Assembly (NCBI GenBank): GCA_021803945.1
Contig: JAJZKW010000005.1
Coordinates: forward strand, 7,716 to 55,335
Reading direction: 5' to 3'
DNA from: Candidatus Micrarchaeota archaeon
Lineage (GTDB): Archaea > Micrarchaeota > Micrarchaeia > Micrarchaeales > CABMGC01
DNA: 47,620 bases
This document shows positions 6,059 through 39,546 of the stretch, piece by piece. Positions within the stretch are counted from its first letter, which is position 1. Each line of letters begins with the position of its first letter. A program made the position numbers and the translations under genes. The notes below the pieces were generated by a model. It saw only the letters and a list, made by a program, of their open reading frames with translations, was not told where the DNA came from and ran no database searches.

Positions 6059-9690
<3,632 letters not shown>

Positions 9691-11529
9691 CTACTCGTTC
9701 AGGCTTATGCTGGTCATTATGTGGAGGGACTTTATCTCGTCGAGCAGCACTTTGAAGGCGTAGCTTATCTCTACCTCCTCGAAGTCGTTCTGCTTGCACA
9801 CAGAGCATATCTGCACCTTCTTTATGTGATCGTAATATCCCAGCGAGCCGCAGTTCTTGCACACAAGGACCTCTGTCTTGTCGCTCTGGTCGAGCAGCCT
9901 CTCCTTGAGCAGCAGGCTAGCCCCGTATCCTATTAGAGCATCTCGTTCCATCTCCCCGAATCTCAGGGCACCCTGCCTGGCTTTTCCTTCAGTAGGCTGG
10001 TGGGTAAGTATCTGCACCTTCCCCCTGCTTCTGACCTGTATCTTGTTGCTGACCATGTGGTACAGCCTGTTGTAGTATACCACTCCGTTGAAGATCGTGG
10101 ACCTGAACGGCAGCCCAGTCATCCCGTCATAAAGCACCTCATTGCCGTATCTCTCGAACCCGTGCGATTCGAGCATGTTTCCATAATCCTCTATCCTCTT
10201 AGACCCTGCCTCTGCGAACGCCGTGCCGTCCATTATCCTGCCCCCTACTGCACCGGCCTTTCCTGAGAGCATCTCCAGGAGGTGGCCGAAGGTAAGCCTT
10301 GTCGGTATAGAGTGCGGATTGAGTAGCAGGTCAGGGACTATCCCCTCAGCAGTGAAAGGCATGTCTTCCGGCGGAACTATCAATGCCACAACTCCCTTCT
10401 GCCCGTGCCTGCTCGCAAACTTGTCCCCGTTTTCAGGTATCCTGAGGCTCCTTATCCTTGTCTTGACTATCTTCGTAGCGCCTGTTGATTCTGTGAATAT
10501 AACGCTGTCTACCACTCCGCTCTCCCCTGTCTTCATCACCACCGTATCATCCCTTACCTTCTCCTCTAACCCTCCTGCTCCCAGGTTCTCCTCAAGGAAC
10601 CTTGGAGGCGCTATCTTCCCTATCAACGCGTCCCCTTCAGACACCTCCATCTCAGGCTCTATTATCCCGTCCTCGCTGAGCTTCGAGTATACGTGCTCTC
10701 CCATGTATCCGTCGGCTGTAGGCGGAGGGATCTTGAACTTGTCCTTCTGCCCTCCAGGATACCTCCTCTCCTCATCCACATATGTCTTGTAAAACATGCT
10801 TCTCCCGAGCCCCCTGTCCACAGCGGCCCTGTTCAGGACTATGGCATCTGCCATATTGTATCCATAGTATGTTGAAAGCGCAACCACGAAGTTCTGTCCG
10901 CTGGGGTGGTTGGTTATCTTCACAGTCTCGTATGCCGCAGTGGTGGCTATGGGTTTCTGCGGGTAGAAAAGTATATATGACCTGGAATCGAACCTCTGGT
11001 TGAAGTTTGTGGCATACAGGCCCTGCGCCTGCTTCGTGAAGTTGGCGAGCATTGCGTGCCTTGCCAAGCTGTTGTGCTCAGGGTAAGGCGATGTGTTTAT
11101 CGTAAATCCGAATATTGCCGATATGTCCACCTCAAGGTGGGTGGTCTTTTCCGTTATGTCCTTTTCAGTCATCGCAGCCAGTATATTCTCCTCCTCCTCC
11201 GCATCGAGGTATTCGACTATCCCGTTCCTAAGCAGCCAGTTGAAATTTATCTCCTTGCTCTTCAGCTTCTCCTCCAGCTCGCGTGTGAACTTCGACTGCT
11301 TGTTCTCCACTATTATGTAAGGCTTCCTCAGCCTTCCCCTGTCAGTGTTTATATTGACTGCATTGAGCTTTTCGGAGTATGACACGTTCACCTCTCCTGA
11401 TATCATGCCCTTCCTGCGTGCGGCCCGTATCTCGGCTGCCAGCTCCAGCGGATTCTCCACTGCTCCGGCAACCTTGCCATTGAGGTAAACGTATGCCTTG
11501 CCCTTCGCTCTAGCCGCCATAAACATCAC
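9691..11529 (-). CDS. rpoB1: DNA-directed RNA polymerase subunit B'
   Basis: GDKFASRHGQKG, LRFGEMERD, C-terminal CxxC...CxxC. Confidence 0.97.
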   Translation of the reverse strand: MMFMAARAKGKAYVYLNGKVAGAVENPLELAAEIRAARRKGMISGEVNVSYSEKLNAVNINTDRGRLRKPYIIVENKQSKFTRELEEKLKSKEINFNWLLRNGIVEYLDAEEEENILAAMTEKDITEKTTHLEVDISAIFGFTINTSPYPEHNSLARHAMLANFTKQAQGLYATNFNQRFDSRSYILFYPQKPIATTAAYETVKITNHPSGQNFVVALSTYYGYNMADAIVLNRAAVDRGLGRSMFYKTYVDEERRYPGGQKDKFKIPPPTADGYMGEHVYSKLSEDGIIEPEMEVSEGDALIGKIAPPRFLEENLGAGGLEEKVRDDTVVMKTGESGVVDSVIFTESTGATKIVKTRIRSLRIPENGDKFASRHGQKGVVALIVPPEDMPFTAEGIVPDLLLNPHSIPTRLTFGHLLEMLSGKAGAVGGRIMDGTAFAEAGSKRIEDYGNMLESHGFERYGNEVLYDGMTGLPFRSTIFNGVVYYNRLYHMVSNKIQVRSRGKVQILTHQPTEGKARQGALRFGEMERDALIGYGASLLLKERLLDQSDKTEVLVCKNCGSLGYYDHIKKVQICSVCKQNDFEEVEISYAFKVLLDEIKSLHIMTSISLNE

Positions 11530-12998
11530 AATTTTTCTATCTTGGTAAGTTCCCTTATCCTTGCCTCAGTTGACTCCTCATCCGCTCCAACCGTCACCTT
11601 CGCCATCGCAGCGAGGTACTTGGTCAATCCTACCTCCTGGCCTTCAGGAGTCTCTGACGGGCATATCTTGCCCCACTGCGTACCGTGCACATCCCTTGCC
11701 TTGAAATGCGGATGCTTCTTTGCCAGCGGAGACTTGACTCTCCTGAGGTGCGTATAGGTGCTTATTATGTTTGTCCTGTCAAGCACCTGAGACACTCCTG
11801 TCTGCCCTGCCACCCACGTTCCAGTGCCCATTGCGTATGCAATCCTCTCTGTTATCGTGTCAGGATTGATTATAGACTGAATGCTGAGCTTCCTCCCCCT
11901 TGCGCTCGTCCTCTCTATCTGGTATTTAACCTCCTTGGTGAAGAACCTGAATGCATATGCGAAAAGCTCCTCCATCAGCTCTCCTGAGTACTTCACCCTC
12001 TTGTTGCCATAGTGGTCCTTGTCATCCTCCTTGGCCTGCCTGTTGCCTATTATCGTCGCCTTCCGTGCCATCTGTATCAGGTACTTGCCCTTCTCGAGCC
12101 TGTCTTCAGGAGCCTCCCCTATGTGCGGAAGCAGGTAGTTGTCAACCTGCGTCTCCGCCCTCTTCTGCTGGTATTCCTTGGCCTGCCCTGGAGCAGACAG
12201 CTTCCCAAGCTCTACAAGCGACTCGTTTGACGACATATCCTTGCTTTCTGAGACCTCTATATTGAGCATCATATCATTCTTGAACGGGAGCATGTCTTCA
12301 GCGTAGCTCATTATGTTCTCCGCCTTCAGTCCTAGCGCCTTAAGCACGAGCATGAAGTTAAGGCTTTTCGGCACTGTAGGGAAATCCACAGTGAATATCC
12401 CGTTCTGCGCCCTTGTCACAACGCACCTGGCTCTGAATCCAGGTGCCGTAGAGAAGACCACGCTGGCGACCTTGTCGCCGGTCTTCTTCCTAGTGGTTAT
12501 GATCCTATTCGCGGCTACGTCCTCCAGCCCTATCAGCACACGCTCCACTCCCTTTATTATGAAGTACCCTCCTGGGTCGTCGACATCCTCGCCGTTTTCC
12601 ATCATCTGCTGCTTTGTCTGGGTCTTCAGGTAGCACAGGTTGCTCCTTACCATGATAGGCATCTCTCCCACGAAGACCTCCCCGAACGAGGCAGACTTCT
12701 CTATCCCCCTTATTATCGGGACTACCTCTATGAATATCGGAGCAGAATAAGTAAGGTTCCTCAGCCTTGTCTCGTTAGGCATTATCGGCCTCCTCGATCC
12801 GTCTGCCTCTATCACAGAAGCCTTCTCGAGCCTCACCTTCCCCAGCTTCAGCGCGAATCCCTCCACACTTGGCTCTATTATGCTCTGCCTGTTTATGACT
12901 GCCTGGATCCCGCTGTCCTGGAACCTGTTGAAGCTCTCTATCTGGTGTGTGACAAGGGAATTTGCCTCTAGGTACGATTCAAGCAGTATATTGCTCAT
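11526..12998 (-). CDS. rpoB2: DNA-directed RNA polymerase subunit B''
   Basis: HQIESFN, DPGGYFIIKG, DDKDHYGNKR, CPSETPEG. Confidence 0.97.
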   Translation of the reverse strand: MSNILLESYLEANSLVTHQIESFNRFQDSGIQAVINRQSIIEPSVEGFALKLGKVRLEKASVIEADGSRRPIMPNETRLRNLTYSAPIFIEVVPIIRGIEKSASFGEVFVGEMPIMVRSNLCYLKTQTKQQMMENGEDVDDPGGYFIIKGVERVLIGLEDVAANRIITTRKKTGDKVASVVFSTAPGFRARCVVTRAQNGIFTVDFPTVPKSLNFMLVLKALGLKAENIMSYAEDMLPFKNDMMLNIEVSESKDMSSNESLVELGKLSAPGQAKEYQQKRAETQVDNYLLPHIGEAPEDRLEKGKYLIQMARKATIIGNRQAKEDDKDHYGNKRVKYSGELMEELFAYAFRFFTKEVKYQIERTSARGRKLSIQSIINPDTITERIAYAMGTGTWVAGQTGVSQVLDRTNIISTYTHLRRVKSPLAKKHPHFKARDVHGTQWGKICPSETPEGQEVGLTKYLAAMAKVTVGADEESTEARIRELTKIEKL

Positions 12999-13010
12999 AT
13001 AAACAAACCT

Positions 13011-13241
13011 TTAGCCGTCTATTACTGCCCTGTAGTATGGATATTCCCGCTTTCCTTCCCTCCTGTATATCTTCAATACCTGTCCTGGCTTTGCCTCGAG
13101 CTTCTTCGCCTGTACGTCGCTCTCGAATATCTTAGGAAGGTTATCAATCGTAATATTAAAGGTCTTGAAAAGCTCTTTCACGTCCTTGTCACTCATGATT
13201 TCATGAACCGGAACAAGTTCGTGGTCGCTTTTTGATGGCAT
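13011..13241 (-). CDS. rpoH: DNA-directed RNA polymerase subunit H
   Basis: HELVPVHEIM, LPKI, YYRAV; first gene of the rpo operon; GGTGA SD upstream. Confidence 0.95.
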   Translation of the reverse strand: MPSKSDHELVPVHEIMSDKDVKELFKTFNITIDNLPKIFESDVQAKKLEAKPGQVLKIYRREGKREYPYYRAVIDG

Positions 13242-13481
13242 AATTCACCCAACATCAGCACTAGCAGTGGGAATTCCACTACTCCTTTGTTCAACAAACT
13301 TTATAAGCGTTTTCATAGGTCCTTTTACCTGCAATAAAAGCCTTTTGGCAGGGCTTTGTCGGTTAAATGCCATTCGGCGAGATTGGGATTTTCGATATAA
13401 ATCTCATTATCCACCGATGCGCTCGTAGTACCGACTTTCAGTAGACTTTGCACTATTGATTTGTGATGTCAAAAAGAGAAG

Positions 13482-13503
13482 CCCCTGAACCTATATTCAG
13501 GGG
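13482..13503 (-). terminator. hairpin plus U-rich tract downstream of the orphan gene at 13519-13953
   Basis: CCCCTGAA-6nt-TTCAGGGG perfect 8-bp stem followed on the minus strand by CTTCTCTTTTT. Confidence 0.6.
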
Positions 13504-13518
13504 AAGATTCTTAATCTG

Positions 13519-13953
13519 TCAGTCTCTATGGTAGAGACCTAAAGGATCTTTTTTATTAATTTTTTCTACTAGTACTCCAAAACCAATACCAGCTACACCC
13601 GCAATTGCTAATCCAATAACGGTTACATCTTTAGTTAGCTGGATACTTTTTGTTAGTTGGGCGCCTAGCTGGTTATTATACATCAACCCCACAATCCCAA
13701 TGGCTACACGAGACATTAGTCCGAATGCAGCTATGGCAAGACCTGCGAAAGCTCCCTTTCCAGCTAAATCTGCCTCATCATTTAGTCTCCTCATGAGCCT
13801 TTTATATGTCTCTGCTTCCTTCCCCTGGTCAACCGTTCTTCTTATTGCTCCCCAATACTCCGGGGGCAGTACCTGCGCAGTTGTTTCCCCTCTTTCCCTT
13901 TTCACAGCACTTAAACTATTCTTCGGGACTTCCGGCGCATTTAATTTCTCCAT
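13519..13953 (-). CDS. hypothetical membrane protein (orphan, AT-richer than flanks)
   Basis: 144-aa ORF with two Gly/Ala-rich hydrophobic segments; has its own TATA box and terminator. Confidence 0.7.
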   Translation of the reverse strand: MEKLNAPEVPKNSLSAVKRERGETTAQVLPPEYWGAIRRTVDQGKEAETYKRLMRRLNDEADLAGKGAFAGLAIAAFGLMSRVAIGIVGLMYNNQLGAQLTKSIQLTKDVTVIGLAIAGVAGIGFGVLVEKINKKDPLGLYHRD

Positions 13954-14037
13954 TTTACCACAAACATATTATGCATTTTCTCATATTTAAATATAATTAT
14001 ATTGAGCAATTTATTAGTAATCTGTTGTTGTTTTGGT
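13954..14037 (-). promoter_or_regulatory. promoter cassette: ACCAAAACAACA motif plus TATA (TTTAAATA)
   Basis: Motif starts 46 nt upstream of the TATA box; aligns without gaps to the region upstream of 25586. Confidence 0.6.
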
Positions 14038-14194
14038 GCATATGTAGCTTTGTAGAAATCCCCTCATTCTAACTACCCCGGAAGCTGCCACTACTTTGTT
14101 TAGAACTGGAATTGCTTTTTGAAGAGCCATACTAGAATCAAGACAGTGTTTAAAATGGATTTCACAGCAACGCTTTCGATTAACAAGCCGCAGA

Positions 14195-14267
14195 TGCGAC
14201 CGCCGGGATTCGAACCCGGGTTATTGACTTGGAAGGCCAAAGTCCTACCAGGCTAGACTACGGTCGC
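14195..14267 (-). tRNA. tRNA-Gly(TCC)
   Basis: Cloverleaf GCGACCG...CGGTCGC-A, anticodon loop CTTCCAA, T loop TTCGAAT; CCA not encoded. Confidence 0.95.
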
Positions 14268-14452
14268 ACTGCACACAATATAATGTGCAACTTAATTTTT
14301 AAATTAACGCCTCCTTCAAAACCACACGCAAGCAGGTTGGCTATTCCGCAGATATGGCCTATCTGGCATCTCCCTATCCAATTTCCAACAATTTAAACAG
14401 TTTGCAAATGCATAAATACTATAATTGCGCTAAAATATCCAACTGAGACTAC

Positions 14453-15574
14453 ATGGACGATGAATACAAGATAGGCGCTTATTCCGTTGAGGGCAAAGTG
14501 GACTATGAAGACACGATCAAAAAATTCGGAATCGGCCTTATTGACGACGCTCTGAAAGCGAGGATAAAGAAGGATGCGGGAGAGGTCCATTTCATGATAG
14601 AGCGCGGCATATACTTCGCACAGAGGGACATGAACTGGCTTTTGGACAAGTATGAAAAAGGGGACAAGTTCTATGTATACACCGGGATAGCCCCTTCAGG
14701 CAGCATGACGATAGCACACCTCCTGCCATTCATAATGGCGCAATGGCTGCAGGAAAAGTTTGATGCCGATGTACTGGTGCAGATTCCTGACGAGGAGAAA
14801 TTCCTAGCAAAGCGGGATCCAAAGCTCTCGCTCGAAAGGGCGCACGAGCTTGCCTATGAAGACGCGCTTGACATAGCGGCCCTTGGGTTCAAGCAGTCCA
14901 AGACGAAGATATTCCTCAATACAGAATATGCGACAGTATTGTACAAGCAGGCGGTCAGGGTCTCCAAATATCTTACCTTCTCGATAGTCAAGGACGCATT
15001 CGGATTCGGCAATGATACCAATGTCGGCACGCTCTTCTATACAAGCATGCAGGCCGTCCCGGCATTCCTCAAGTCAGTACAGGAAGGAAGGAACATACCA
15101 TGCGTCATACCTCTTGGTCTCGACCAGGATGTCCATTTCAGGGTCGCGCGGAACGCCATAGACAAGCTCGGATACTACAAGCCTGCGATAATGCATTCAA
15201 AGTTCCTGCCTTCGTTAAAAGGAGGCCCGAAGATGTCCTCAAGCGACCCCGACAATACCATATACCTGAACGATTCGCCTGAGGCGGTGGCAAGGAAGGT
15301 GAACAAGGCAATAACAGGACAGCAATCTACAGCAGAGCTCCAGAAGAAACTCGGAGGCGACCCAGACAAATGCGCAGTATGCCAGTATAACAGGTATCTC
15401 TTCGAGCCAGATGACAAAAAGCTAAAGGAGATATTCGATGGAGAGCGGAAGGGCACGCTTCTCGCAGGGGAGCACAAGAAGGACCTGGCAAACAAGATAA
15501 ACAAATTCCTTGAAGGCCACAGGAAGAACAAGGAGAGATTAAGGGGCAGCCTGGACAGCTTCATGCTGCAGTAA
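14453..15574 (+). CDS. trpS: tryptophan--tRNA ligase (archaeal/eukaryotic type)
   Basis: YTGIAPS, DEEKFL, GLDQDVHFR, KMSSS, GGDPDKC. Confidence 0.93.
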   Translation: MDDEYKIGAYSVEGKVDYEDTIKKFGIGLIDDALKARIKKDAGEVHFMIERGIYFAQRDMNWLLDKYEKGDKFYVYTGIAPSGSMTIAHLLPFIMAQWLQEKFDADVLVQIPDEEKFLAKRDPKLSLERAHELAYEDALDIAALGFKQSKTKIFLNTEYATVLYKQAVRVSKYLTFSIVKDAFGFGNDTNVGTLFYTSMQAVPAFLKSVQEGRNIPCVIPLGLDQDVHFRVARNAIDKLGYYKPAIMHSKFLPSLKGGPKMSSSDPDNTIYLNDSPEAVARKVNKAITGQQSTAELQKKLGGDPDKCAVCQYNRYLFEPDDKKLKEIFDGERKGTLLAGEHKKDLANKINKFLEGHRKNKERLRGSLDSFMLQ

Positions 15575-15633
15575 TCGCTTCCGCTTTCAATATAAAAACT
15601 TTTCATGCAATCTCATAGATACCGGTCATATAC

Positions 15634-16608
15634 ATGCTTGTACTCGGAATAGAGAGCAGCGCACACACCTTCGGGGTAGGGATAGTTGAAGGCGGAAAGG
15701 TCCTTTCAAACGAGAAGTCAATGTACGACATAGGCACAACAGGCATGATCCCTAAGAAAGTTGCAGAGCATCACGTTCAGAACTCAAATTCAATTGTGCG
15801 AGCCGCGCTTGAAAATGCAGGCGTCGGTCTGGAGGACGTAGAAGGCATAGGATATACGAAAGGACCAGGAATAGGGAATTGCCTGCAGGTAGGGCAGATA
15901 GTGGCAAAGACGCTTGCCCAAAAACTGAATGTACCCATAGTGCCTGTAAACCATGGCGTAGGCCACATAGAGATAGGAAGACTGAAGAGCGGTCTTAAGG
16001 ATCCAATAGTCCTTTATGTCAGCGGGGGGAATTCACAGATATTAAAGATTTCAAGCAAGCCGGAGAGGCACTACCGCATACTCGGGGAGACATTCGACAT
16101 AGGCATAGGGAACATGCTTGACAATTTCGCAAGGGCGATAAAACTGAACCCTGCATGGGGCTCCTCCGTAGAGAAGCACGCGCTCGGAGGCAGGTACCTA
16201 AGCATGCCGTACACTGTGAAGGGAATGGATTTTTCCTTCACCGGGCTGCTCACCCACTCCATAAAGCAGATAGGCAAGCACAGCGTCAAGGACATCTGCT
16301 TTTCTCTCCAGGAGACCGCGTTCTCCATGCTCTGCGAGGCGACAGAAAGGGCAATGCTGCTTACAAGCAGCAGCGAACTGTGCGTATGCGGCGGAGTGGC
16401 GCAGAATGCAAGGCTCAAGGAGATGCTTAAGTATGTCGCAGAAGAGCACAGGGCGAAGATAGGCTACGCTGCAAACGAGTTCAACGCGGACAACGGCGCC
16501 ATGATAGCCTTTGTCGCAGAAAGGATGCTTGATGGGGGATGCAGGACAAGGCTGTCTGATTGCACCATCGAGCAGAGATACAGGGTAGACCAGGCACAGA
16601 TATATTGA
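15634..16608 (+). CDS. kae1: KEOPS N6-L-threonylcarbamoyladenine synthase Kae1
   Basis: LGIESSAHT, NHGVGHIE, YVSGGNSQ, ETFDIGIGN, DNGAMIA. Confidence 0.96.
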   Translation: MLVLGIESSAHTFGVGIVEGGKVLSNEKSMYDIGTTGMIPKKVAEHHVQNSNSIVRAALENAGVGLEDVEGIGYTKGPGIGNCLQVGQIVAKTLAQKLNVPIVPVNHGVGHIEIGRLKSGLKDPIVLYVSGGNSQILKISSKPERHYRILGETFDIGIGNMLDNFARAIKLNPAWGSSVEKHALGGRYLSMPYTVKGMDFSFTGLLTHSIKQIGKHSVKDICFSLQETAFSMLCEATERAMLLTSSSELCVCGGVAQNARLKEMLKYVAEEHRAKIGYAANEFNADNGAMIAFVAERMLDGGCRTRLSDCTIEQRYRVDQAQIY

Positions 16609-16621
16609 CAATGTTGATATC

Positions 16622-17209
16622 ATGAGGAAGATTGGAGAAGGCGCGGAAGCAGTAATCTATTCAGGAAAGATATACGGGAAGGAGGTGATAGTAAAATACA
16701 GGGCGCCGAAGAGATACAGGGTAGCGGAGCTTGATACAACGATAAGAAAAGGCAGGACAAGGAAAGAGGCTATGGTAATCTCAAGAGCCACAAATTCAGG
16801 AGTAAATGTGCCAATGCTGATAGGGCTGGGAGCGTATGAAATATACATGGAATACATAAGAGGAACTGCGCTTAAAGATATGGAAGCCTCAAAGGCAATT
16901 ATGGCAATGACCGGAGTGCAACTGGGCAGGCTGCATAATGCAGGGATAGCCCACGGCGATTTCACACCGGCTAACATCATAATGAAAGGGAAAAATGTTT
17001 ATGTGATAGACTTCGGGCTTGCTGAGATTACTGAAAGCAGCGAAGAACGGGCACTGGATCTGCTTCTCATGAAGAGGCAGATTAGCGCAAGCCTTAACAG
17101 AGCATTCCTTTCTGGATACACGAAGACTTCGGGCTCGAGCAGGGATGTCCTAAGGCGCCTTTCCGAAATAGAGGAAAGGGGAAGGTACCAGATTAGGACA
17201 TTGGCATAG
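16622..17209 (+). CDS. bud32: KEOPS kinase/ATPase Bud32
   Basis: GEGAEA, HGDFTPAN, IDFGL, RGRY; immediately follows kae1. Confidence 0.95.
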   Translation: MRKIGEGAEAVIYSGKIYGKEVIVKYRAPKRYRVAELDTTIRKGRTRKEAMVISRATNSGVNVPMLIGLGAYEIYMEYIRGTALKDMEASKAIMAMTGVQLGRLHNAGIAHGDFTPANIIMKGKNVYVIDFGLAEITESSEERALDLLLMKRQISASLNRAFLSGYTKTSGSSRDVLRRLSEIEERGRYQIRTLA

Positions 17210-17341
17210 CGATAGACGCCAAGTATCTCCATACATTTTGTCAAGAGTGTGCCGCTCATATGCATCTGCAATGCATACGCTCAGGCTCATTATCCCTAAT
17301 ACTTGAAGCACGCTGTGTGCCAAACAACAAAATCCAGCGGG

Positions 17342-17455
17342 CTAGAGCTCGCCTACCCTTCTCTTCTGGGCCCTCTTTATCCTGCGCCTCCTCTTCTTGA
17401 GCCACTTCCAGCGCATTCTTCCCTTCTTTTTCCACTTCCTAGGTATGCTGCCCAA
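17342..17455 (-). CDS. rpl41e: ribosomal protein eL41 (L41e/eS32), 37 aa, absent from the ORF track
   Basis: Hand translation from TTG: [37 protein letters not shown], matching the archaeal [14 protein letters not shown] signature; GGTG upstream. Confidence 0.9.
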
Positions 17456-17584
17456 AACAAGCACCAATGAGGTATTAATAATCATAACATTATATAATCA
17501 TAGCGGAAAGGCAAGGACCGCCACGGACCCAGAGGCTGAAGAACAAATATATACTTTGCAGTGGCAAATTCTTACCGTGCTTTC

Positions 17585-18367
17585 ATGGTCAACACAAAAG
17601 CGATAATGATATATGTTGTGCTGCTTGTCGTAGTGGCCATCATAGCCTTCTTCATCCTCCCTTCAAGCCCGCCGAAGACAACTACAGCCTTAACCACGTT
17701 CCCATCAAATTCCCAGAAGACGACAATTCCGCACCAGACCACAGTGATAAGTGCGACCACCACCACAGGTTTTTCGTCTTCATGCATATCTGCCAACCAG
17801 ACGGTCCCGATATACAACGGCAACTTCTCCACAGGCACGTTCGCGGGCTGGAACACGACGGGGCTAGGGTTCGGATCGGCTCCGAGGAACAAGACATACT
17901 ATAACAACAAGCTCATCTATTACGGCTCCCCGTGGGCCGGGTTCAACGGAGTGTACTTCGCGTCCAACTTCCAGGGCGGCACCCAGGTGGTTGGAGGAAA
18001 CCTCACATCAAACACGTTCGTAGTAAGAGAATCTTTCCTCAACTTCAAGATAATCTCTCCGCGCAGCAAGCTGATCTTCGTGCAGATATTGAGGAACGGA
18101 GCACCGGTAATAACGACATACTTCAACACGTACTCCAAGACGAGCTCCAGCAATACAAATTCCTCGAGCACGTTCGTGAACGCGAGCATAAACCTAATCC
18201 CGCTCCTCTGCGAGGACGTCCAGATAAGGGTATCGGCAGGCACACAGACCAGCTCGACCACGTCCGCAAGCACAAATTACATAGCGGTCACAGGATTCTT
18301 CCTGGGAAAGAGGCCGTATCAAGACGCAATCCTTCCGTACAACCAGACCATAAACCTTACAAGCTAG
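17585..18367 (+). CDS. N-terminally anchored extracellular protein with probable carbohydrate-binding beta-sandwich
   Basis: N-terminal TM helix, Thr/Ser linker, NGNFSTGTFAGW and GNLTSNTF...FLNF motifs, many NxS/T sequons. Confidence 0.65.
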   Translation: MVNTKAIMIYVVLLVVVAIIAFFILPSSPPKTTTALTTFPSNSQKTTIPHQTTVISATTTTGFSSSCISANQTVPIYNGNFSTGTFAGWNTTGLGFGSAPRNKTYYNNKLIYYGSPWAGFNGVYFASNFQGGTQVVGGNLTSNTFVVRESFLNFKIISPRSKLIFVQILRNGAPVITTYFNTYSKTSSSNTNSSSTFVNASINLIPLLCEDVQIRVSAGTQTSSTTSASTNYIAVTGFFLGKRPYQDAILPYNQTINLTS

Positions 18368-18377
18368 GTAAGCCATC

Positions 18378-19808
18378 ATGCTATCTGTATACAACACCCT
18401 CTCAAGGTCCAAGGAGGAGTTCAAGCCTCTCTCCGGGAAGGAGGTGAAGATGTTCGTATGCGGGCAGACAGTATATGACGACGCGCACCTAGGGCACGCG
18501 AAGAACTACATAAACTTCGACGTCATAGCCAGGTGGCTGAGGAGGAGCGGATACTCCCTCAAGTACATCCAGAACATAACCGACATAGACGACAAGATAA
18601 TAAAGAGGGCAGCCGAGGACGGGGTCGATCCGATTGCGCTTGCAAGGAGGTACGAATCAAGGTTCATGGAGGACATGGAGGCCATAGGGGTGAAGGCCGG
18701 AGTGGACAGTTATCCAAGGTCGCATGATTTCATAGGCGCCATTAAGGAGCAGCTGCAGATGCTCCTGGACAACGGATACGCGTACGTCCTGGACGGCGAC
18801 ATATACTATGACGTATCAAAATTCAAAGACTACACAAAGCTTTCCGGGATGAGGGTCGAAGAGCTCGAGAAGCACAGGATAGAGCCGAAGGAGGGAAAAA
18901 GGAACTCCTACGACTTCGTCCTCTGGAAAGGCTCGAAGCCCGGGGAGCCGAGCTGGAAGATAGGGCTAAGGCTTGATGGCAGCGAGATGGACATAGAGGG
19001 CAGGCCAGGATGGCACATAGAGGATACGGCAATAACATACGCCATCTTCGGAAGGCAGTACGACATCCACGGCGGAGCCATAGAGCTCATATTCCCGCAC
19101 CATACGAACGAGATAGCCCAGGCAGAGGCGGCATTCAAGGTCAGCCCTTTCGTCAGGTACTGGATGCATTCTGGCATAATGCTGATAAAAGGGGAGAAGA
19201 TGAGCAAGAGCCTGAAGAACTTCATAAGGATAAGGGACCTCCTGAAAGAATACGATGCGGAGGCCTTGAGGATGCTCATATGCTCCACCCACTACAGGAA
19301 AGACATAGCGTACACAGACCAGCTAATGAAAGACGCCTCTTCAAGGCTCAGGCATGCGTATTCATCGCTGGGCATATTCTTCAACATGGAGGCAGAGGAG
19401 AGCAAGGAGTCATGCGCAGAGGTCGACGCTATAATGGACGGGCTCAGGAAGGGCTTCGCCGAGGCTATGGACGACGACTTCAACACTCCTCTCTCCCTTT
19501 CGCTGCTCATGTCGGCGATAGAGAAGCTAAGGATATACGCCGAGTCATATCCGAAGATAAGCTCCAAGTCAAAGGAATCTGCGGTCAGCGAAGTGCTGTC
19601 GCTCTGCGGGATATTCGGGATCATGCAGAAGGACGCGTACAAGGAGAGGCTCTCTGCAGACGAAGCAAGGCTGATAAAGGAGAGGGAGTCACTGAGGAGG
19701 GAGAAGAAGTTCGCGGAATCGGATGTTATAAGGGAAAGGCTGGCCAGCGAGTTCGGCATAATAACGGAAGACAGCGAATTCGGGACGATATGGTACAGGA
19801 AGGGATAG
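18378..19808 (+). CDS. cysS: cysteine--tRNA ligase
   Basis: CGQTVYD, HLGH, GRPGWHIE, DIHGG, FPHH, KMSKS, MDDDFNT. Confidence 0.97.
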   Translation: MLSVYNTLSRSKEEFKPLSGKEVKMFVCGQTVYDDAHLGHAKNYINFDVIARWLRRSGYSLKYIQNITDIDDKIIKRAAEDGVDPIALARRYESRFMEDMEAIGVKAGVDSYPRSHDFIGAIKEQLQMLLDNGYAYVLDGDIYYDVSKFKDYTKLSGMRVEELEKHRIEPKEGKRNSYDFVLWKGSKPGEPSWKIGLRLDGSEMDIEGRPGWHIEDTAITYAIFGRQYDIHGGAIELIFPHHTNEIAQAEAAFKVSPFVRYWMHSGIMLIKGEKMSKSLKNFIRIRDLLKEYDAEALRMLICSTHYRKDIAYTDQLMKDASSRLRHAYSSLGIFFNMEAEESKESCAEVDAIMDGLRKGFAEAMDDDFNTPLSLSLLMSAIEKLRIYAESYPKISSKSKESAVSEVLSLCGIFGIMQKDAYKERLSADEARLIKERESLRREKKFAESDVIRERLASEFGIITEDSEFGTIWYRKG

Positions 19809-20276
19809 CTATCCCTGCTCCTGCCCCTGGGCCTGCTTCTTTCCGTCTCCTGCTTGTGCCTCCGCAGCGCTCCTGCCGCCCCTCTTCTTCTGCCTGTCGG
19901 TCCTTGCATTTGCAAACAGCACGAGCAGGTCCTCCTCCTTCGGCGTCTCTGCCCATGCCTTTATGTAGAGTGATATGTTCTTTAGCGGCCTCGAATACCT
20001 GTCAGTGAAGGCGTACACCCCGTCCTCGTGCTTCAGCAAGCCAACCATGACTCCGAAGTCGAGATACCTCTTCCATGTCGCCATGGGGAGCTCGTCCCCG
20101 CAGTCCTTGAGCCTTAGCCCGTTCCTCTTCTTCACCTCGCACAGCGCCTTCGAGAACCTGTAGGCCTTCGTGTCGTTGTCGAAGTATATCTTTGCTACGT
20201 CCCTAACGTTCGGGTCCTTCAATTTCTCCTTGAGGGGAGCGTCTTCGTACTCCCAGTACCTGATCGCCATGGACAT
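19809..20276 (-). CDS. hypothetical protein, possible winged-helix fold
   Basis: 155-aa ORF downstream of the DRG gene; MATWKRYLDFGVMVGLLKHEDGVYAFT resembles a recognition helix plus wing. Confidence 0.6.
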   Translation of the reverse strand: MSMAIRYWEYEDAPLKEKLKDPNVRDVAKIYFDNDTKAYRFSKALCEVKKRNGLRLKDCGDELPMATWKRYLDFGVMVGLLKHEDGVYAFTDRYSRPLKNISLYIKAWAETPKEEDLLVLFANARTDRQKKRGGRSAAEAQAGDGKKQAQGQEQG

Positions 20277-20335
20277 ATTGTGTTTGGTAATAAATTTAAT
20301 CCTTACTGAGCCGAACCCGCAATCCCGTGCGCATA

Positions 20336-21469
20336 CTAGAAGTCAAATACAACAGTGACTACATCCCCGTCCATCACTTTGTGGTCTTCCCCGACCCTCT
20401 GGTTCGCAAACTTAGAGCTCGGGCCGCTCACATAGGCATACTTTATGCTCTTCACGAGCTTCGTGTTTATCTTCCTGACCACTTCTATTATGCTAGCCCC
20501 TCCGTCAAGGACAAGAGGCTTGCCGAAATCCGGGCTGCCGTCCTTGGGCTTGAGGTACACCCTTATGAGCCCGAGGCCGTCGAACACCTTCTTCTTGACA
20601 TCGTCTATGTTATCTGCCATCTTCGCGCTTATCGGTATCACGCGCATGCCTGTCTTTGCCTCAATCTCATTCTTCAGCGCCTCTATCTTCCTCGAATCCG
20701 CAGTGTCTATCTTGTTCAGGGCAACAACCCCCCTGATATACACGCAGTTGTCGGCTACGAAGTCTATGAGCATCTGGTCAGTAGTATCCTGGTAAAAGAC
20801 AAGGTCCCCGTTGAATATCTTGAACTCGTTGAGCACGCTAAGTATCACGTCCCTGCCGGGTATGCGGTGCCCGTTCCCCTCTATATGCACCCCTCCAGCC
20901 GCTGTCCTCTCAAGCCTGATCTTCGGCCTCTCCTGGTTCACCCGTATGTTCAGCATGCCCAGCTCATCGACAAGCTGGTATACCTGCTGGTGCGCATTTA
21001 TGTCTATGACGAAGAGCATAAGGTCCGCTATCCTGATCACGCTGATTATCTTCAGGCTCCCTCCCCTGCCTATGTGAGCGCCCTGTATGAGCCCCGGAAG
21101 GTCGAGGACCTGTATCTTCGCGCCGTTGTATTCCAGCATGCCAGGTATGACGTCAAGCGTAGTGAATGCGTAGTCCGCCACCTTGGACTGCACTCCGGTC
21201 AGCACCCGCAGGAGAGACGACTTACCTGCATTAGGGAACCCTACCAGCACGACCGTCGCATTCCCTGACTTCCTCACGGAATATCCTGTCCCGCTTCTCC
21301 TGCTGTGGCTCTCTATCTCCCTCCTTATCTTGGCTATTTTGGCCCTCAGCTGCCCTAGGTACTTGTTCGTTGCCTTGTTGTATTTCGTCTTCGAATACTG
21401 CTCCTGCAGCTCCTCTATCTTCTTCTCCCCTGAGGTCTTGTCAATCATAAACATCCGCTTGCGAATCAA
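20336..21469 (-). CDS. drg: DRG-family (OBG-like) GTPase with TGS domain
   Basis: NKAT, GFPNAGKSS, YAFTTL, DLPG, NKID, C-terminal TGS (QRVGEDH...DGDVV); true start likely an ATG near 21448-21454. Confidence 0.93.
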   Translation of the reverse strand: MIRKRMFMIDKTSGEKKIEELQEQYSKTKYNKATNKYLGQLRAKIAKIRREIESHSRRSGTGYSVRKSGNATVVLVGFPNAGKSSLLRVLTGVQSKVADYAFTTLDVIPGMLEYNGAKIQVLDLPGLIQGAHIGRGGSLKIISVIRIADLMLFVIDINAHQQVYQLVDELGMLNIRVNQERPKIRLERTAAGGVHIEGNGHRIPGRDVILSVLNEFKIFNGDLVFYQDTTDQMLIDFVADNCVYIRGVVALNKIDTADSRKIEALKNEIEAKTGMRVIPISAKMADNIDDVKKKVFDGLGLIRVYLKPKDGSPDFGKPLVLDGGASIIEVVRKINTKLVKSIKYAYVSGPSSKFANQRVGEDHKVMDGDVVTVVFDF

Positions 21470-21530
21470 ACCTTGCTGTGCATAATCATTTAATTCTTAC
21501 GAAAGATAAACCTTTGTGGAGGTGCATTGA

Positions 21531-22544
21531 ATGATCGATATTCTAGTCGGCGGCTTCTACGGCGACGAAGGCAAGGGCAAGGTGGCGTCATACCTCGCGC
21601 TGAACGACAAACCAAGGATTGCAGTGAGGACAGGCAGCATAAACGCCGGGCACACGGCTGTGTACAACGGGAATTCATACAAGCTCAGGTCTATCCCTTC
21701 CGCATTCATCAGCGCTGGCACGGAGCTAGCCATATCTCCCGGAGCGCTCATCAAGCTTGACATCCTCTTCAAAGAGATGGAGACGACAAAGACGCGGCAA
21801 AGGATCATGATAGACGGGCATGCCGGAGTCATAACGGAGCTTGAGGCGGAGGAGGAGAGGAAGGACAGCCTGCTGAGCGACAAGGTGGGCAGCACGAAGC
21901 AGGGAGTCGGCGCAGCCGAGTCGAAAAGGATCCTGAGGAGCCTAAAGCTGGCGAAGGACTATCCCGAGCTCTCAGAATTCATAGCCAATGTGCCGGAGAA
22001 GGTAGTGGATTGCGTAAAGGATGGGGGCCTGGTCCAGGTTGAGGGGAGCCAGGGGCACATGCTCAGCCTGTATCACGGAGTCTATCCGTATGTAACGAGC
22101 AGGAACACGACGTCATCTGGAATACTGAGCGACGTTGGCGTGGGCCCGAAATACGTAGGCAGCGTAATAGCGATATTCAAGGCCTTCGTGACAAGGGTCG
22201 GCGGAGGCCCGATGGACAACGAGATGTCCCCTGAGAAGGCAAGGGAACTCGGGCTCCAGGAATTCGGCACTGTGACAGGCAGGCAGAGGAGAGCCGCTCC
22301 ATTCGACCCCAAGCTCGCAAAGGAGGTTGTCAGGATAAATTCGGCAACAGAGGTCGCGATAACAAAAGTCGACGTGCTCTTCAAGGGTGCCGAGAAGGTA
22401 AGGAGCTATGGTCTGCTCCCAAAGGAGGCAAAGGAATGGATAGAAGGGATAGAGGACGAGATAGGCGCCAATGTCACGCTGATAGGCACAGGAGAGGACG
22501 CGCTTGACATGGTGGACCGCAGGAAGGAGATATCAGGCAAATAA
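21531..22544 (+). CDS. purA: adenylosuccinate synthetase (short archaeal type)
   Basis: [34 protein letters not shown]. Confidence 0.96.
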
Positions 22545-22558
22545 TTCCGTGATTACGA

Positions 22559-23989
22559 ATGCCGGACGAAAGAAAAAGGCCGCCAAGGCCATCGAAGCTC
22601 GACGTATCCTATTTCGAGAACCAGGAGCACATCTCCCCTATAGGCATAAGGTACACCACAAGTATGTCAAAGGTCTTCGGAGAGGAGAGCTACATACAGG
22701 CAATATTAGACGTAGAGGCGGAGAACGTAAAGGTGCTGTCCGAGCTGTATCCGGGAAAGGTCCCAGGCAGAGCTGCAAGGAGGATCAAGGCGATAGCCGA
22801 TACCAGTCACGTCAGGCCTGCAGAAGTAAGGAGGAGAGAAGCAGAGAAGACGCACCACGAGCTTGCCGCTGTAATAGGAGTGATGGCAGACAAGGCAGGC
22901 AAGGACGGCAGGTATGTGCACTTCGGGATGACTTCTGCAGACGCAGTGGAAACCGCCAAGGCCCTGCAGATGCTTAAGGCCATTGACATACTGATTAAAA
23001 CCGCAGCGGATACGAGGGACGCATGCCTGAGGGCAGCGTTGTCCTGGAAAGACATCCCGTCGATAGCCAGGACCCACGGGCAGCACGCAATACCTGCCCC
23101 GTTCGGCCTTCCATTCGCCTTCTTCGGATACTGCCTGCAGAAAAACATAGAGAGGCTCAGGTATGACAGGGAGAGGTGTGCAGAAGGGAAGCTGTCAGGT
23201 GTCATAGGCACGTACGATGTGCACGTGAACGAAGGCATCGACGGCCCGAAGGTGGAAGAGAAGGTTCTCAGAAACCTCGGAGTGAAAAAGGCGGAGATGG
23301 CCATGCAGACCCCGCCCCGGGAAGGCACTGCATATATAATCTCAGACCTCGCAGTGCTTTGCGGCAGACTTGCGACAATCGCGTCCTACATAAAGATGCT
23401 GAAGCGGACAGAGATACTGGAGCTGAGCGAAGCTCCTGACAGGGGCTCAGTAGGGAGCTCGGCAATGCCACACAAGAACATGCATGGCAATCCGTTCATA
23501 GAGGAGAGGTGCATCTCGATAGGCAGGATCCTGCGCGGCCACGCGCTGGCATCACTGGAATCCATGTCGGTCGAGGACTTCAGGGACCTAACAGCCTCCC
23601 TCTCAGACAGGGTGATTATACCTGAATCTTTCATACTCTCGGATTATGCGTGCGCCCTGATTAAAAACATAATAGAGCGCGCAAGCATCGTGCCTGAAAA
23701 CATAGAGCACAACCTAAACCGCACAAAAGGCACGGCCTCTTCGCAGCTTGTGATGAGCAGGCTCGTGGACAAGGGGATGCAGAGGCAGAGGGCCAGGGAG
23801 ATATCATTCAATGCCGCTGAGGCCGCGCTGAAAGGTGATATCAGCTACCTTGAAGCGCTGATGGAAGACAGTGAGATAGCAGGGCTCATCTCCGAGGGCG
23901 AGCTCAGGAGCCTATGCGATCCAAGGACAAACCTGGGCATGTCAAGGAAGATAATCGAGAGGATCGCAGGGAAGTACATGAATAAGTAG
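22559..23989 (+). CDS. purB: adenylosuccinate lyase
   Basis: HFGMTSAD, RTHGQHA, SSAMPHK fumarase-superfamily signature; follows purA. Confidence 0.93.
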   Translation: MPDERKRPPRPSKLDVSYFENQEHISPIGIRYTTSMSKVFGEESYIQAILDVEAENVKVLSELYPGKVPGRAARRIKAIADTSHVRPAEVRRREAEKTHHELAAVIGVMADKAGKDGRYVHFGMTSADAVETAKALQMLKAIDILIKTAADTRDACLRAALSWKDIPSIARTHGQHAIPAPFGLPFAFFGYCLQKNIERLRYDRERCAEGKLSGVIGTYDVHVNEGIDGPKVEEKVLRNLGVKKAEMAMQTPPREGTAYIISDLAVLCGRLATIASYIKMLKRTEILELSEAPDRGSVGSSAMPHKNMHGNPFIEERCISIGRILRGHALASLESMSVEDFRDLTASLSDRVIIPESFILSDYACALIKNIIERASIVPENIEHNLNRTKGTASSQLVMSRLVDKGMQRQRAREISFNAAEAALKGDISYLEALMEDSEIAGLISEGELRSLCDPRTNLGMSRKIIERIAGKYMNK

Positions 23990-24062
23990 CAGAAACAGCG
24001 CAGTCTCCCTCCCTCCAAATTTCCGTTATCCCGCTTCTCCTTCGCACGCAGCAGGCTTGGCA

Positions 24063-25501: not shown

Positions 25502-25585
25502 ACCAAAATAACAGGGTTCTGCTTCAAATCTGCTAAACGCAATTAGGTTTAAATATGAGGCAAAGTGAATTCATACTGTGATAAA
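25502..25585 (+). promoter_or_regulatory. promoter cassette: ACCAAAATAACA motif plus TATA (TTTAAATA)
   Basis: Motif 46 nt upstream of TATA and TATA 38 nt upstream of ATG, the same spacing as upstream of gene 13953. Confidence 0.6.
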
Positions 25586-25849: not shown

Positions 25850-25852
25850 AAA

Positions 25853-26680
25853 GTGCAAGCCCTAAGCACATCAGGCAAGCAGGAAACAAGGACGATTAGA
25901 ATGGATGACATAAAAAGTGCCCTTCGGGACAGCAGCCCGCAGCTAAAACTTGTGCTATTCGATATAGATGGAACAATCCTCTCCTCCGGATCGTTCACCA
26001 AGTGCCTTGTCAAGGTCGTCGTGGATAAGTTAGGCAGCTCCGTAAACACCGCTCCGCTGTCAGACAGGGCAAAGACTGGCAGCACAATGAAATCCGTGCT
26101 TATAAGCATACTCAATGAAGAGGGTATACCAGAAGACAAACAGGAGGGGCTTGTCGAAGAGATGCTTTCATCCGCTACAATGGAATACAAATCCTGGCTG
26201 TCAAAGTTTCCTCTCAAACTATTGGATGGGGTGGCAGAACTCATCGAACTCCTGTCCAGCAGAGAAGACGTAATGCTTGGGATAGTCACCAACAACATAA
26301 AGGAAATGATGCTGCTAAAATTAGACAATGTGAAGCTGCTGGAAGTTTTTTCGCGCTACGGGCTTATGTTCCCTGGAGACAACATCCCCGGAGATAAAGC
26401 CAGTCTCCTCGAATTGGTGGTAGAATCTGCAGTAAAGAACTTCAGCCCGCGCCTTGACAGGAAGAACATCTTCTATATCGGGGACCAAGTCTCCGATATG
26501 CTTGGTGCCAAGGCTGCAGGCGCAGTTGCAGTTGGGATTGCTACAGGAAAATCCACTTTCGAGGAGCTGGAAGCTGCAGGCGCATCCGCCGTATTCCGCA
26601 GCTTCGCAGACAATGCAAGGGCGGCAATGGCTGTTATTGAAATGCCACGGGCCTATGCAGCGAAAAAGATGACAGTATAA
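25853..26680 (+). CDS. HAD-superfamily hydrolase (phosphoglycolate-phosphatase-like)
   Basis: LFDIDGTIL motif I, IVTN motif II, IGDQVSD motif IV, GIATG. Confidence 0.88.
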   Translation: MQALSTSGKQETRTIRMDDIKSALRDSSPQLKLVLFDIDGTILSSGSFTKCLVKVVVDKLGSSVNTAPLSDRAKTGSTMKSVLISILNEEGIPEDKQEGLVEEMLSSATMEYKSWLSKFPLKLLDGVAELIELLSSREDVMLGIVTNNIKEMMLLKLDNVKLLEVFSRYGLMFPGDNIPGDKASLLELVVESAVKNFSPRLDRKNIFYIGDQVSDMLGAKAAGAVAVGIATGKSTFEELEAAGASAVFRSFADNARAAMAVIEMPRAYAAKKMTV

Positions 26681-26783: not shown

Positions 26784-26897
26784 GGGCTCATAGCTCAGCC
26801 TGGTTAGAGCGCTGGTCTTATAATGGTCTTTTAGGCAATGTCAAGCCTAGAATGATAAGAGAGCCAGATGTCGTGAGTTCAAATCTCACTGGGCCCA
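26784..26897 (+). tRNA. tRNA-Ile(TAT) with a 39-nt intron at position 37/38 (intron 26823-26861)
   Basis: GGGCTCA/TGGGCCC acceptor stem, CTGGT/GCCAG anticodon stem, CT-TAT-A|A loop; CTTA pairs with intron TAAG (BHB central helix); intron stem TTTTAGGC/GCCTAGAA; 75-nt mature tRNA. Confidence 0.92.
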
Positions 26898-27010
26898 CCT
26901 CAGCACTAACGAGAGAAACAGTAAATCTGAAAACAGAAAAGCAGGCAAAAAGGGATAACCTGGTTGGGCTGAACGACTAAAGCGAAGCATAATCTCCAAA
27001 TAAGTAGCAG

Positions 27011-27802: not shown

Positions 27803-27811
27803 CCCTAATCA

Positions 27812-38919: not shown

Positions 38920-39471
38920 CTATTTCAATTCCGCTCCAGGCGATAGTATTAACTGCGGCGGAGGAAACGTTGCTGTACTATATAATCCAAATTCCTCCTT
39001 TTTACAATCTTCCGAGCCTTTTTCTATATAAGCAAAATGCAATTTTGTTTCTCTAGCCAAAACTGTATTTTCATACGCATCAATTTCCCCTTTTCCGTAG
39101 TTGATTAGCACATTTCTGCAAACCAACCCCAGCACAAATTCTCCTTGTCTGGTCCCTACAGCTACATTTAGATTCACAGGTACTCCGCTTATTTTGTCCG
39201 GTTTAGACTCAGGGATTTTTATCACAATCCACAAAGCCAACCCCTCTTGTAGCATCCTGTATACCAAATCTTTATTAGAAAGAACCTCTTCGAGCGTAGC
39301 TAAACGGAAGCCAGGTAGGGCCAAGCTCTTAGCTTCCTCAGCCGTTACCATATTTTCAGATACGAATACCGGTCTCGTTACCATCTTTTCAGATACGAAC
39401 ATCGGTCTCTTCTCTTTAGATAGAAATGACGGTCCAGGCGGTGGAATCACTCTTTCCGCAAATAGTGCCAT
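38920..39471 (-). CDS. hypothetical protein (orphan, AT-richer), paralog of 37018-37482
   Basis: VTAEEAK...PGFRLATLEEV and HFAYIEK motifs; TATA 30 nt upstream. Confidence 0.7.
   Translation of the reverse strand: MALFAERVIPPPGPSFLSKEKRPMFVSEKMVTRPVFVSENMVTAEEAKSLALPGFRLATLEEVLSNKDLVYRMLQEGLALWIVIKIPESKPDKISGVPVNLNVAVGTRQGEFVLGLVCRNVLINYGKGEIDAYENTVLARETKLHFAYIEKGSEDCKKEEFGLYSTATFPPPQLILSPGAELK
39343..39408. repeat. in-frame 33-bp tandem duplication
   Basis: Two units with 3 mismatches, encoding RPMFVSEKMVT / RPVFVSENMVT. Confidence 0.85.
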
Positions 39472-39546
39472 AACTATATTATCCCTTTTCTGATATATAA
39501 AGTTAGCTTCGGAACCAAAAACAGCGTGAAATCCTGTTGTTTTGGT
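39472..39546 (-). promoter_or_regulatory. promoter cassette: ACCAAAACAACA motif plus TATA (TTTATATA)
   Basis: Motif 45 nt upstream of TATA; post-TATA sequence resembles that upstream of gene 13953. Confidence 0.6.

Follow-up and report, generated by a model that had tools for sequence, protein, structure and literature searches.

Among archaeal activators, not only those of the Lrp type but also GvpE and TFB-RF1 have their sites upstream of the core promoter. The Lrp-type activators Ptr2, LysM, and Ss-LrpB are described, in the passages of PMC2995911 that deal with activation, as using a position-constrained dimer site a few bp from the transcription factor B recognition element (BRE) and as acting via TBP recruitment; additional sites lie further upstream, at a distance of two or three turns of the helix. 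According to the same passages, archaeal Lrp-type proteins repress or activate from similar operators. Here, a 47.6-kb stretch of DNA from a Micrarchaeota genome (the window) was analyzed. Three promoters in it, designated A, B, and C, stand before three orphan genes of the same letters and share a set of short sequence boxes. The first of these, Box1, reads CAAAAYAACA and starts 43-44 nt upstream of the TATA box. The best explanation, with a rough probability of 0.6, is that the shared promoters carry a binding site at a fixed position for a putative sequence-specific regulator, which would co-control TFE and recently acquired genes.

As far as the passages on activation describe them, the Lrp-type systems, with Ptr2 of Methanocaldococcus jannaschii as the example, resemble the promoters reported here. 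Both have a constrained promoter-proximal site (here Box2, at -22 to -10 over 26 sites), a distal site on the same helical face (here Box1, centered at -39.5 and thus about 23.5 bp from the Box2 center at about -16), and several unrelated target genes. The boxes themselves differ. Lrp boxes are 13-15-bp palindromes, such as TTGAA-N7-TTCAA at the Lrp-like gene of the host genome, whereas Box1 is asymmetric and unrelated in sequence. Also unlike the Lrp-type sites, the Micrarchaeota promoters are conserved 3' of the TATA box as well, and their targets are mostly orphans plus TFE. EarA (PMC10665913), Sta1 on viral promoters (PMC1635249), and HhpR (PMC11705074) are alike, in the available parts of these sources, in that a small group of promoters is controlled through a short, specific motif upstream of the BRE/TATA. 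They differ in motifs, proteins, and lineages, and none of them is described there for DPANN archaea. Promoter reuse and putative mobile prokaryotic promoters, in the portions of PMC3575422 at hand, are alike in that the same promoter stands before non-homologous genes, including horizontally acquired ones. In that case whole promoters are highly similar, whereas here only the boxes are kept (best 56/88), the spacers are random, and the boxes are also conserved at a vertically inherited gene. A literature search for promoter motifs or regulators in Micrarchaeota or DPANN archaea found nothing, and the passages found in PMC8407392 concern the presence of TBP and TFB only. An upstream regulatory site that defines a small regulon is a kind already known; what is new is this member and its target set of TFE plus species-unique genes.

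The host genome, G000, comprises 902,125 bp in 26 contigs at about 49% G+C and is 94% complete. The window is core chromosome and carries the thermosome, split rpoB, split rpoA, rpoH, several aminoacyl-tRNA synthetases, and SRP54. An earlier reading of the window from its letters alone (the sequence-only reading) had guessed a DPANN host, and the guess was right, because the closest SRP54 relatives in the species collection (80-88% identity) are Candidatus Micrarchaeota. The 12-mer ACCAAAAYAACA noticed in that reading lies at 14026-14037(-), 25502-25513(+), and 39535-39546(-), and these are its only three exact copies in the genome. With at most one mismatch, three matches were found in the window against a mean of 0.22 in 100 shuffles, none of which reached three. 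The earlier counts were reproduced. The TATA offsets, from the A of ACC to the start of TTTAWATA, are 46, 46, and 45 nt in A, B, and C. The reverse complement of 13950-14037 agrees with 25502-25589 at 56/88 positions without gaps, and A agrees with C at 27/34 positions from the TATA box onward. The TATA-to-ATG spacing is 38 nt in both A and B, and 30 nt in C. The background was taken from 90-nt segments at 166 other TTTAWATA sites in G000, which agree at 29.7 +/- 4.4 positions (99.9th percentile 44), versus up to 51-56 of 90 for pairs within the class. The observed sharing among A, B, and C is real and statistically solid.

Further copies were recovered with a profile of the three window regions. 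Nine members are clear: A, B, C, C3:18960(-), C4:30854(+), C8:45617(+), C10:58747(+), C14:19195(+), and C20:14323(-). Here and below, C3, C4, C8, C10, C14, C18, C20, and C21 denote contigs of G000. The TATA boxes of the C14 and C20 copies are weaker. The nine-promoter profile refinds every member at E <= 7e-10, and the next match stands at 0.009. Promoter A agrees with B at 56/90 positions, with C3 and C8 at 54 each, and with C20 at 53. Because A is about as close to C3, C8, and C20 as to B, the window copies are ordinary class members and not a special trio. The 12-mer did not hold as a genome-wide motif, having three copies only; the functional core is the 10-mer CAAAAYAACA together with three further boxes. 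Of 25 genomic copies of the shorter word CAAAAYAAC, 16 fall within the intergenic 16% of bases. When 141 Box1 sites (at most one mismatch) were set against 173 exact TTTAWATA sites, seven pairs were found at +43/+44 and at most one at any other of 299 offsets. This strong positional bias in the genome-wide offset histogram bears out the earlier claim of a fixed-position upstream site before unrelated genes.

The anatomy of the class was determined from 26 genus-level sites aligned on the TATA box. Box2 is WTTGCTAAAA-like, lies about 20 nt upstream of the TATA box, and ends about 10 nt upstream of it. The third element is TTTAWATA, and the fourth is the class-specific TSAGRAAA / CATAATAT stretch 3' of the TATA box. 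Upstream of the TATA box, information peaks are found only at -44 to -34 (Box1), at -29 (a T), and at -22 to -10 (Box2). The Box2 consensus over the 26 sites is AATWTTGCnAAAA, with CTG in some copies, B among them. The downstream peaks are TTTAWATA, TSAGRAAA directly 3' of it, and CATAATA at +18 to +24. Since the distance from the TATA box to the start codon peaks at 28-31 nt genome-wide, the CATAATA element would lie right before the predicted transcription start. The class promoters fit the ordinary archaeal core layout, with the TATA box about 25-30 nt before the start and a purine/A-rich, BRE-like stretch upstream. Some copies carry an inverted Box1 in the Box2 region, such as C10 with CAAAACAACA-N8-TGTTATTTTG; over all sites the symmetry is limited to the outer CAAAAY...RTWTTG. 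TGTGRTAAAATGG, which had been listed among the shared parts, is an ordinary GGTGA-like ribosome-binding context that is present at core genes as well. Another exact Box1 was seen at G000:C11:7581, 135 nt before the window start; it abuts a 100-N scaffold gap, and its promoter context is unreadable.

The footprint at the TFE promoter is the strongest argument that the boxes are functional. TFE-alpha (C8:45721-46425(+); TFIIE_alpha Pfam 3e-11) is the sole TFE-alpha gene found in the genome and the only conserved member of the class, being kept across species. Its promoter has an exact Box1 in G000, G001, G002, G003, G005, and G011, which is 6/11 of the genus genomes in which the gene was found, and also in G015, a member of another genus. 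One mismatch is present in G007, G009, and G010, and two in G004. Across species Box2 is retained at the TFE promoters, and the spacers have diverged. The retention of the boxes at an orthologous, vertically inherited promoter shows that the boxes themselves are under selection. In the window, Box1, Box2, and TSAG are absent from 17 other promoters, including those of the thermosome, rpoH, the aminoacyl-tRNA synthetases, and SRP54. The earlier impression that the motif avoids housekeeping promoters fails genome-wide, as the motif stands before the sole TFE-alpha gene. The class is not limited to orphans either, since TFE-alpha and a GGDEF gene are also members.

The phylogenetic range of the class was measured with two patterns. 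CAAAAYAACN{33,36}TTWAWATA gave 34 matches in 31 related genomes versus 1 for the reversed control. It is present in 10/12 congeners, 2/6 other genera of the family, and 2/11 sister-family genomes, and the two sister-family matches are unlike class members. The stricter pattern (Box1, TATA, and TSAG) gave 23 matches in 185,579 species genomes, 15 of them in Micrarchaeota when a record titled Marsarchaeota, whose SRP54 is 83% identical to that of G000, is included. Metagenome contigs gave 35 matches to the strict pattern; about half of these show Box2 and the downstream elements by eye, and 8/35 pass a strict Box2 test. Viral contigs gave 0 matches. Over the species genomes, the class is almost confined to Micrarchaeota.

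The idea of an undescribed regulon is supported by the observed boxes, their fixed position, their conservation despite spacer drift, the lineage restriction, and the nature of the downstream genes. Binding of a protein to the boxes, activation, and the start positions are predicted. A, B, and C are copies of a lineage-specific Micrarchaeota promoter class with about nine clear copies in G000. Under this reading, Box1 and Box2 would be bound by one sequence-specific DNA-binding factor, as a dimer or a higher oligomer. Bound there, the factor would occupy a single face of the helix immediately 5' of the BRE/TATA and would help TBP and TFB load, as Ptr2-type activators do. It would co-regulate all promoters with the boxes, namely those of TFE-alpha and of species-specific genes that are recently acquired or young. 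Regulation by the putative factor would most likely be positive.

Micrarchaeota and other DPANN archaea are mostly uncultured, with very few regulators. Here, a delimited and conserved cis-element with about nine targets per genome is available, and therefore a concrete experiment becomes possible. Through the regulon, expression of accessory genes unique to a species, a class suspected in the host interaction of these symbionts, would be tied to the basal factor TFE. The class promoter also helps annotators recognize real orphan genes in metagenome-assembled genomes of Micrarchaeota.

Several points weigh against a dedicated activator of this kind. The sign of regulation is uncertain because the TATA boxes of the class are already consensus, whereas activated archaeal promoters are often weak; repression or an architectural function is roughly as plausible as activation. 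The search of G000 yielded no binding protein, and the Lrp-like gene at C18:40122-40574, the sole candidate that carries an exact Box1, had to be dropped. Box1 is not palindromic, and the Box1/Box2 dyad is clear solely in C10, C14, and C3. In G012 the TFE gene is present and the boxes are absent. The gene starts and the intergenic share (16% of bases) come from a simple caller based on open reading frames, and the transcription starts are placed solely by the 28-31 nt distance peak. The related genomes are kin and 76-97% complete, and counts across them are not independent. Three metatranscriptome runs from the same study contained almost none of the sequence words sought and, compared with window positions 7000-26999, gave only 35-65-nt pieces at 90-95% identity in RNA-polymerase genes, none of them from this organism.

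G000 encodes Lrp-like proteins. Candidate DNA-binding proteins of the Lrp, HTH_24, or TrmB type were located at C18:11898-12479 and C10:45074 and on contigs C1, C13, C15, C17, and C19. The Lrp-like gene at C18:40122-40574 has its exact Box1 79 nt upstream of its TATA box; it was dropped as the regulator, since 0/5 orthologous promoters have Box1. Its distribution was also off, as G003 and G006, the genomes richest in class promoters, yielded no orthologue, and G012, which has no class promoter, yielded one. This Lrp-like gene (C18:40122-40700(-)) and its orthologues L220-L224 show two TTGAA-N5/7-TTCAA palindromes that flank the TATA box and are kept in six species. The palindromes are likely an autoregulatory operator unrelated to Box1.

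The genes behind the class promoters were then compared. The three window proteins are unrelated to each other by blastp and are orphans, as the sequence-only reading had held, with no Pfam family and no homologues in searches of relatives. Six-frame search of 30 relatives found no homologue of A, B, or C, and 5.8 billion protein clusters, searched among near-length candidates only, gave self-matches only. No homologue of gene A was found in genome contigs. No relative of gene C was found in metagenome contigs or in a full HMMER pass over 1.84 billion representatives. For gene C, no ESM Atlas hit exceeded 0.85 or a TM of 0.42, its own model being poor. The class targets of G000 are mutually unrelated and show no paralogy, and 7/9 lack a credible Pfam family: A, B, C, C4 (159 aa), C14 (213 aa), C20 (191 aa), and C3 (871 aa). 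Among 35 target proteins from G000 and its relatives, mutual matches were found only among 5 TFE proteins. The cargo behind the class promoter differs in every congener species. The Pro-rich N-termini noted earlier are confirmed, with 4, 4, and 6 prolines in the first 40 residues of A, B, and C; by comparison, the 766 called genes average 1.33, with at least 4 in 4.7% of them. This is not a class property, because the other members have 0-2 prolines.

Of 17 congener target open reading frames, 5 (4 of them TFE) have a homologue in G000 versus 32/52 neighboring ones; the Fisher p = 0.027 is overstated, as the genomes are kin. The median codon-usage score is -0.007 for the eight non-TFE targets, 0.51 for Pfam-positive window genes, and 0.34 for Pfam-negative ones (Mann-Whitney p = 5e-8 and 1.4e-4 for the targets against the two groups, respectively). 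TFE scores a normal 0.52. The proposed enrichment at non-conserved genes is thus seen both in the homologue counts and in the atypical codon usage. A low codon score does not mean non-coding, because the GGDEF gene scores low yet codes; in the target genes the annotated frame is far the best of six, and the start lies exactly where the promoter predicts. The non-TFE targets are young or foreign, species-specific genes. The C3 target (C3:16266-18881(-)) is an 871-aa protein with about a dozen tandem repeats of about 36 aa (AVIRVAQTVGRYEGEIA...LRDKE) and a non-repetitive C-terminal half. The C10 target (C10:58869-59513(+)) is a 214-aa stand-alone GGDEF protein (Pfam 1e-24) with foreign-looking codon usage, and its promoter has the most symmetric pair of Box1 and inverted Box1.

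The features of the three window copies and their neighborhoods are as follows.

14026..14035, (-) strand: Box1 of promoter A, CAAAACAACA, 44 nt upstream of the TATA start (motif count, fixed offset)
14002..14013, (-) strand: Box2 of promoter A, TAAATTGCTCAA (class alignment)
13984..13991, (-) strand: TATA box of promoter A, TTTAAATA
13966..13983, (-) strand: post-TATA stretch of promoter A, TGAGAAAA (Box3) and CATAATAT right before the predicted start (class alignment)
13519..13953, (-) strand: gene A, a 144-aa orphan with two predicted membrane helices; GTGGTAAA is a ribosome-binding-like context 5' of the ATG
13471..13503, (-) strand: terminator-like hairpin and T-run 3' of gene A (read from sequence only)
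14193..14268, (-) strand: tRNA-Gly(tcc); across the genus, the stretch between this tRNA and rpoH serves as a variable insertion slot
25504..25513, (+) strand: Box1 of promoter B, CAAAATAACA, 44 nt upstream of the TATA start
25526..25537, (+) strand: Box2 variant of promoter B, AAATCTGCTAAA; the same CTG variant occurs in metagenome copies
25548..25563, (+) strand: TATA box of promoter B, TTTAAATA, then Box3, TGAGGCAA
25586..25849, (+) strand: gene B, an 87-aa orphan with the stop TAG (25847-25849)
25901..26680, (+) strand: HAD-family hydrolase, probably co-transcribed with gene B
26784..26899, (+) strand: intron-bearing tRNA-Ile(tat), missed by default ARAGORN and found with its intron option
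39535..39544, (-) strand: Box1 of promoter C, CAAAACAACA, 43 nt upstream of the TATA start
39512..39523, (-) strand: Box2-like element of promoter C, TGTTTTTGGTTC, readable too as an imperfect inverted Box1
39476..39501, (-) strand: TATA box of promoter C, TTTATATA, Box3, TCAGAAAA, and GATAATAT
38920..39471, (-) strand: gene C, a 183-aa orphan with its ATG 30 nt past the TATA start

The transcript of gene C is probably leaderless, because its ATG at +30 from the TATA start falls on the genome-wide peak of 28-31 nt. A and B, with the ATG at +38, would have a leader of about 8 nt counted from the predicted start site. Because a terminator-like hairpin and T-run lie 3' of gene A, the gene seems to form a separate transcription unit that precedes the rpoH promoter.

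The loci of A and B bear on another explanation, in which the promoter travels. It would move with small gene modules in a Micrarchaeota-specific pool of exchanged or mobile genes, or be copied before new genes, so that the likeness reflects common descent of a strong promoter that comes ready to use, and no dedicated regulon. The order TrpRS, tRNA-Gly, rpoH, rpoB is kept in the genus, and the rpoH promoter is kept in all. The tRNA-Gly-to-rpoH gap is empty in G010 (172 nt), G001 (188 nt), and G011 (316 nt). It measures 646 nt in G007 and G009, with an LSm-like gene on the opposite strand, and 1188 nt in G006, also with content other than that of G000. In G000 it measures 952 nt and holds promoter A, gene A, and the terminator-like hairpin. 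The interval between the SRP54 start and tRNA-Ile(tat) is 109-139 nt in six congeners versus 1410 nt in G000, where promoter B, gene B, and the HAD hydrolase sit in an inserted module of about 1.3 kb. Neither gene B nor the HAD hydrolase was found in the SRP54 loci of 66 relatives, and no class promoter was found upstream of SRP54 in these loci, so promoter B is not syntenically conserved. The intron-bearing tRNA-Ile(tat) and its own promoter are kept in congeners. Synteny around gene C is not kept. The hydrolase reading frame is in frame with gene B past the TAG and contains GTG at position 25853 and ATG at position 25901. A TAG read-through fusing gene B to the hydrolase was considered and set aside; because a normal ATG is present at 25901 and the HAD domain begins after it, an operon is likelier, and gene B and the HAD gene are probably one.

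The position of A and B in these tRNA-adjacent insertion slots (952-nt and 1410-nt gaps) speaks for a travelling promoter. So do targets without homologues and with the most atypical codon usage measured (median -0.007), and cargo that differs per congener, with only the 5 TFE of 35 target proteins matching each other. These points are opposed by the lack of any shared sequence beyond the boxes. No extended repeat or element was found around A, B, and C, where blastn of 1-kb regions gave only 12-15-nt box matches, and the spacers between the boxes are at background identity. No shared 3' flanks, terminal repeats, element ends, or integrase or transposase neighbors of the class copies were found, and viral contigs gave no matches. 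The boxes are also kept at the orthologous, vertically inherited TFE promoter. The mobile-cassette idea is weakly supported: nothing speaks for its strict form, as the copies resemble each other in the boxes alone and neither common flanks nor element ends were seen, yet A and B do lie in insertion slots. A travelling promoter is unlikely as the whole explanation; it is compatible with the dedicated regulator and not exclusive of it. A wider speculation, which we consider improbable, is that mobile or very young genes from a pool specific to Micrarchaeota use the module as their signal for expression. Such genes would land, often beside tRNA genes, carrying or quickly gaining a TFE-type promoter, and one factor would tie the expression of the species-unique genes to the level of a basal factor. 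The strongly asymmetric multi-box design may then be required because TBP in this order is encoded as a single repeat; as a symmetric homodimer, it would be unable to set promoter direction alone.

The basal factors of G000 were surveyed for the next explanation. One TFB, one TBP, and one TFE were found, which makes a paralogue of a basal factor improbable. The sole TBP gene identified (G000:C21, L107:1444-1776(+)) is a 110-aa open reading frame that contains just one TBP repeat (Pfam positions 1-85, 102 bits); a convergent gene comes next. TBP matches in 30 relatives lie, all but two, in open frames of 100-146 aa. Single-repeat TBP genes are mostly one per genome in the family of G000 and two at separate loci in 11/11 sister-family genomes, which suggests a homodimeric or heterodimeric TBP across the order. 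The available text of Brindefalk et al. 2013 (PMC3597702) gives one-domain TBP proteins only alongside full-length TBP, and ARMAN and Micrarchaeum are absent from that text. TFE-alpha has a Lys/Asn/Thr-rich, low-complexity N-terminal extension of about 70 aa, which is present in relatives too, though unalignable. More Box1-like words, CAAAACAACC and CAAAAACAAC, occur in the DNA that codes for this extension and in the sequence immediately before it.

In this second explanation there would be no dedicated regulator. The boxes would be extended core-promoter or UP-like elements, read by the TFE-alpha extension, TFB, or the one-repeat TBP, and would make some of the promoters strong and directional. 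The consensus TATA boxes agree with it, as does the sequence specific to the class in the TATA-to-start interval, a region in which TFB and TFE act. A single-repeat TBP would need to form a symmetric homodimer, unable alone to orient a promoter. The unusual basic extension of about 70 aa belongs to TFE-alpha, itself the conserved class member. Against such a role, 17 other window promoters, strong core ones included, lack the boxes, and only about nine promoters in the genome have them. A 10-bp box located 65-75 bp upstream of the start exceeds the known reach of TBP, TFB, and TFE, and a low-complexity, Lys-rich tail is an unlikely reader of a 10-bp sequence. We regard reading by the basal machinery as doubtful, on a par with the travelling promoter.

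A slightly less probable explanation is that a repressor or architectural protein on Box1 and Box2 silences the new genes and TFE until a signal arrives, like the silencing of foreign DNA. A consensus TATA box does not depend on an activator, the target genes look foreign, and archaeal Lrp-type proteins, in the passages of PMC2995911 cited above, can do both from similar operators. The sites of the class lie wholly upstream of the BRE/TATA, where archaeal repressors rarely act, as far as those passages and general knowledge go. The strict helical register with the TATA box suits recruitment over occlusion, and a silencer of foreign DNA is unexpected at the TFE gene. Finally, although intergenic DNA is AT-rich and A-rich words do arise by chance, such as the Box1-like CAAAAACAACA in the thermosome leader (659-669, between TATA and ATG), rejected as chance because it is not kept in 11 congeners, chance likeness of the class promoters is excluded for practical purposes by the shuffles, the offset histogram, the reversed control (1 vs 34), the collection-wide scan, and the orthologous TFE promoters.

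Other features of the window were recorded along the way. In every genus genome examined, a conserved hairpin (ACAAAGCCC...GGCTTTT), at about 13290-13330(-) in the window, precedes the conserved rpoH TATA box (AACGCTTATAAA) by about 70 nt; it is possibly the terminator of tRNA-Gly. The thermosome promoter (AGAAACCTATAAAAA), at about 560-680(+), lies about 100 nt before the ATG and is conserved in 12 genus genomes; its position implies a predicted leader that is unusually long for this genome. The stretch from 26900 to 37000 is lower in G+C and variable, and holds a HicB-like antitoxin, two BofA-like small membrane proteins, a DUF4143 ATPase, a 950-aa NosD/beta-helix protein, and a 667-aa ice-binding-like protein. 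These genes, too, score lower than core genes in codon usage.

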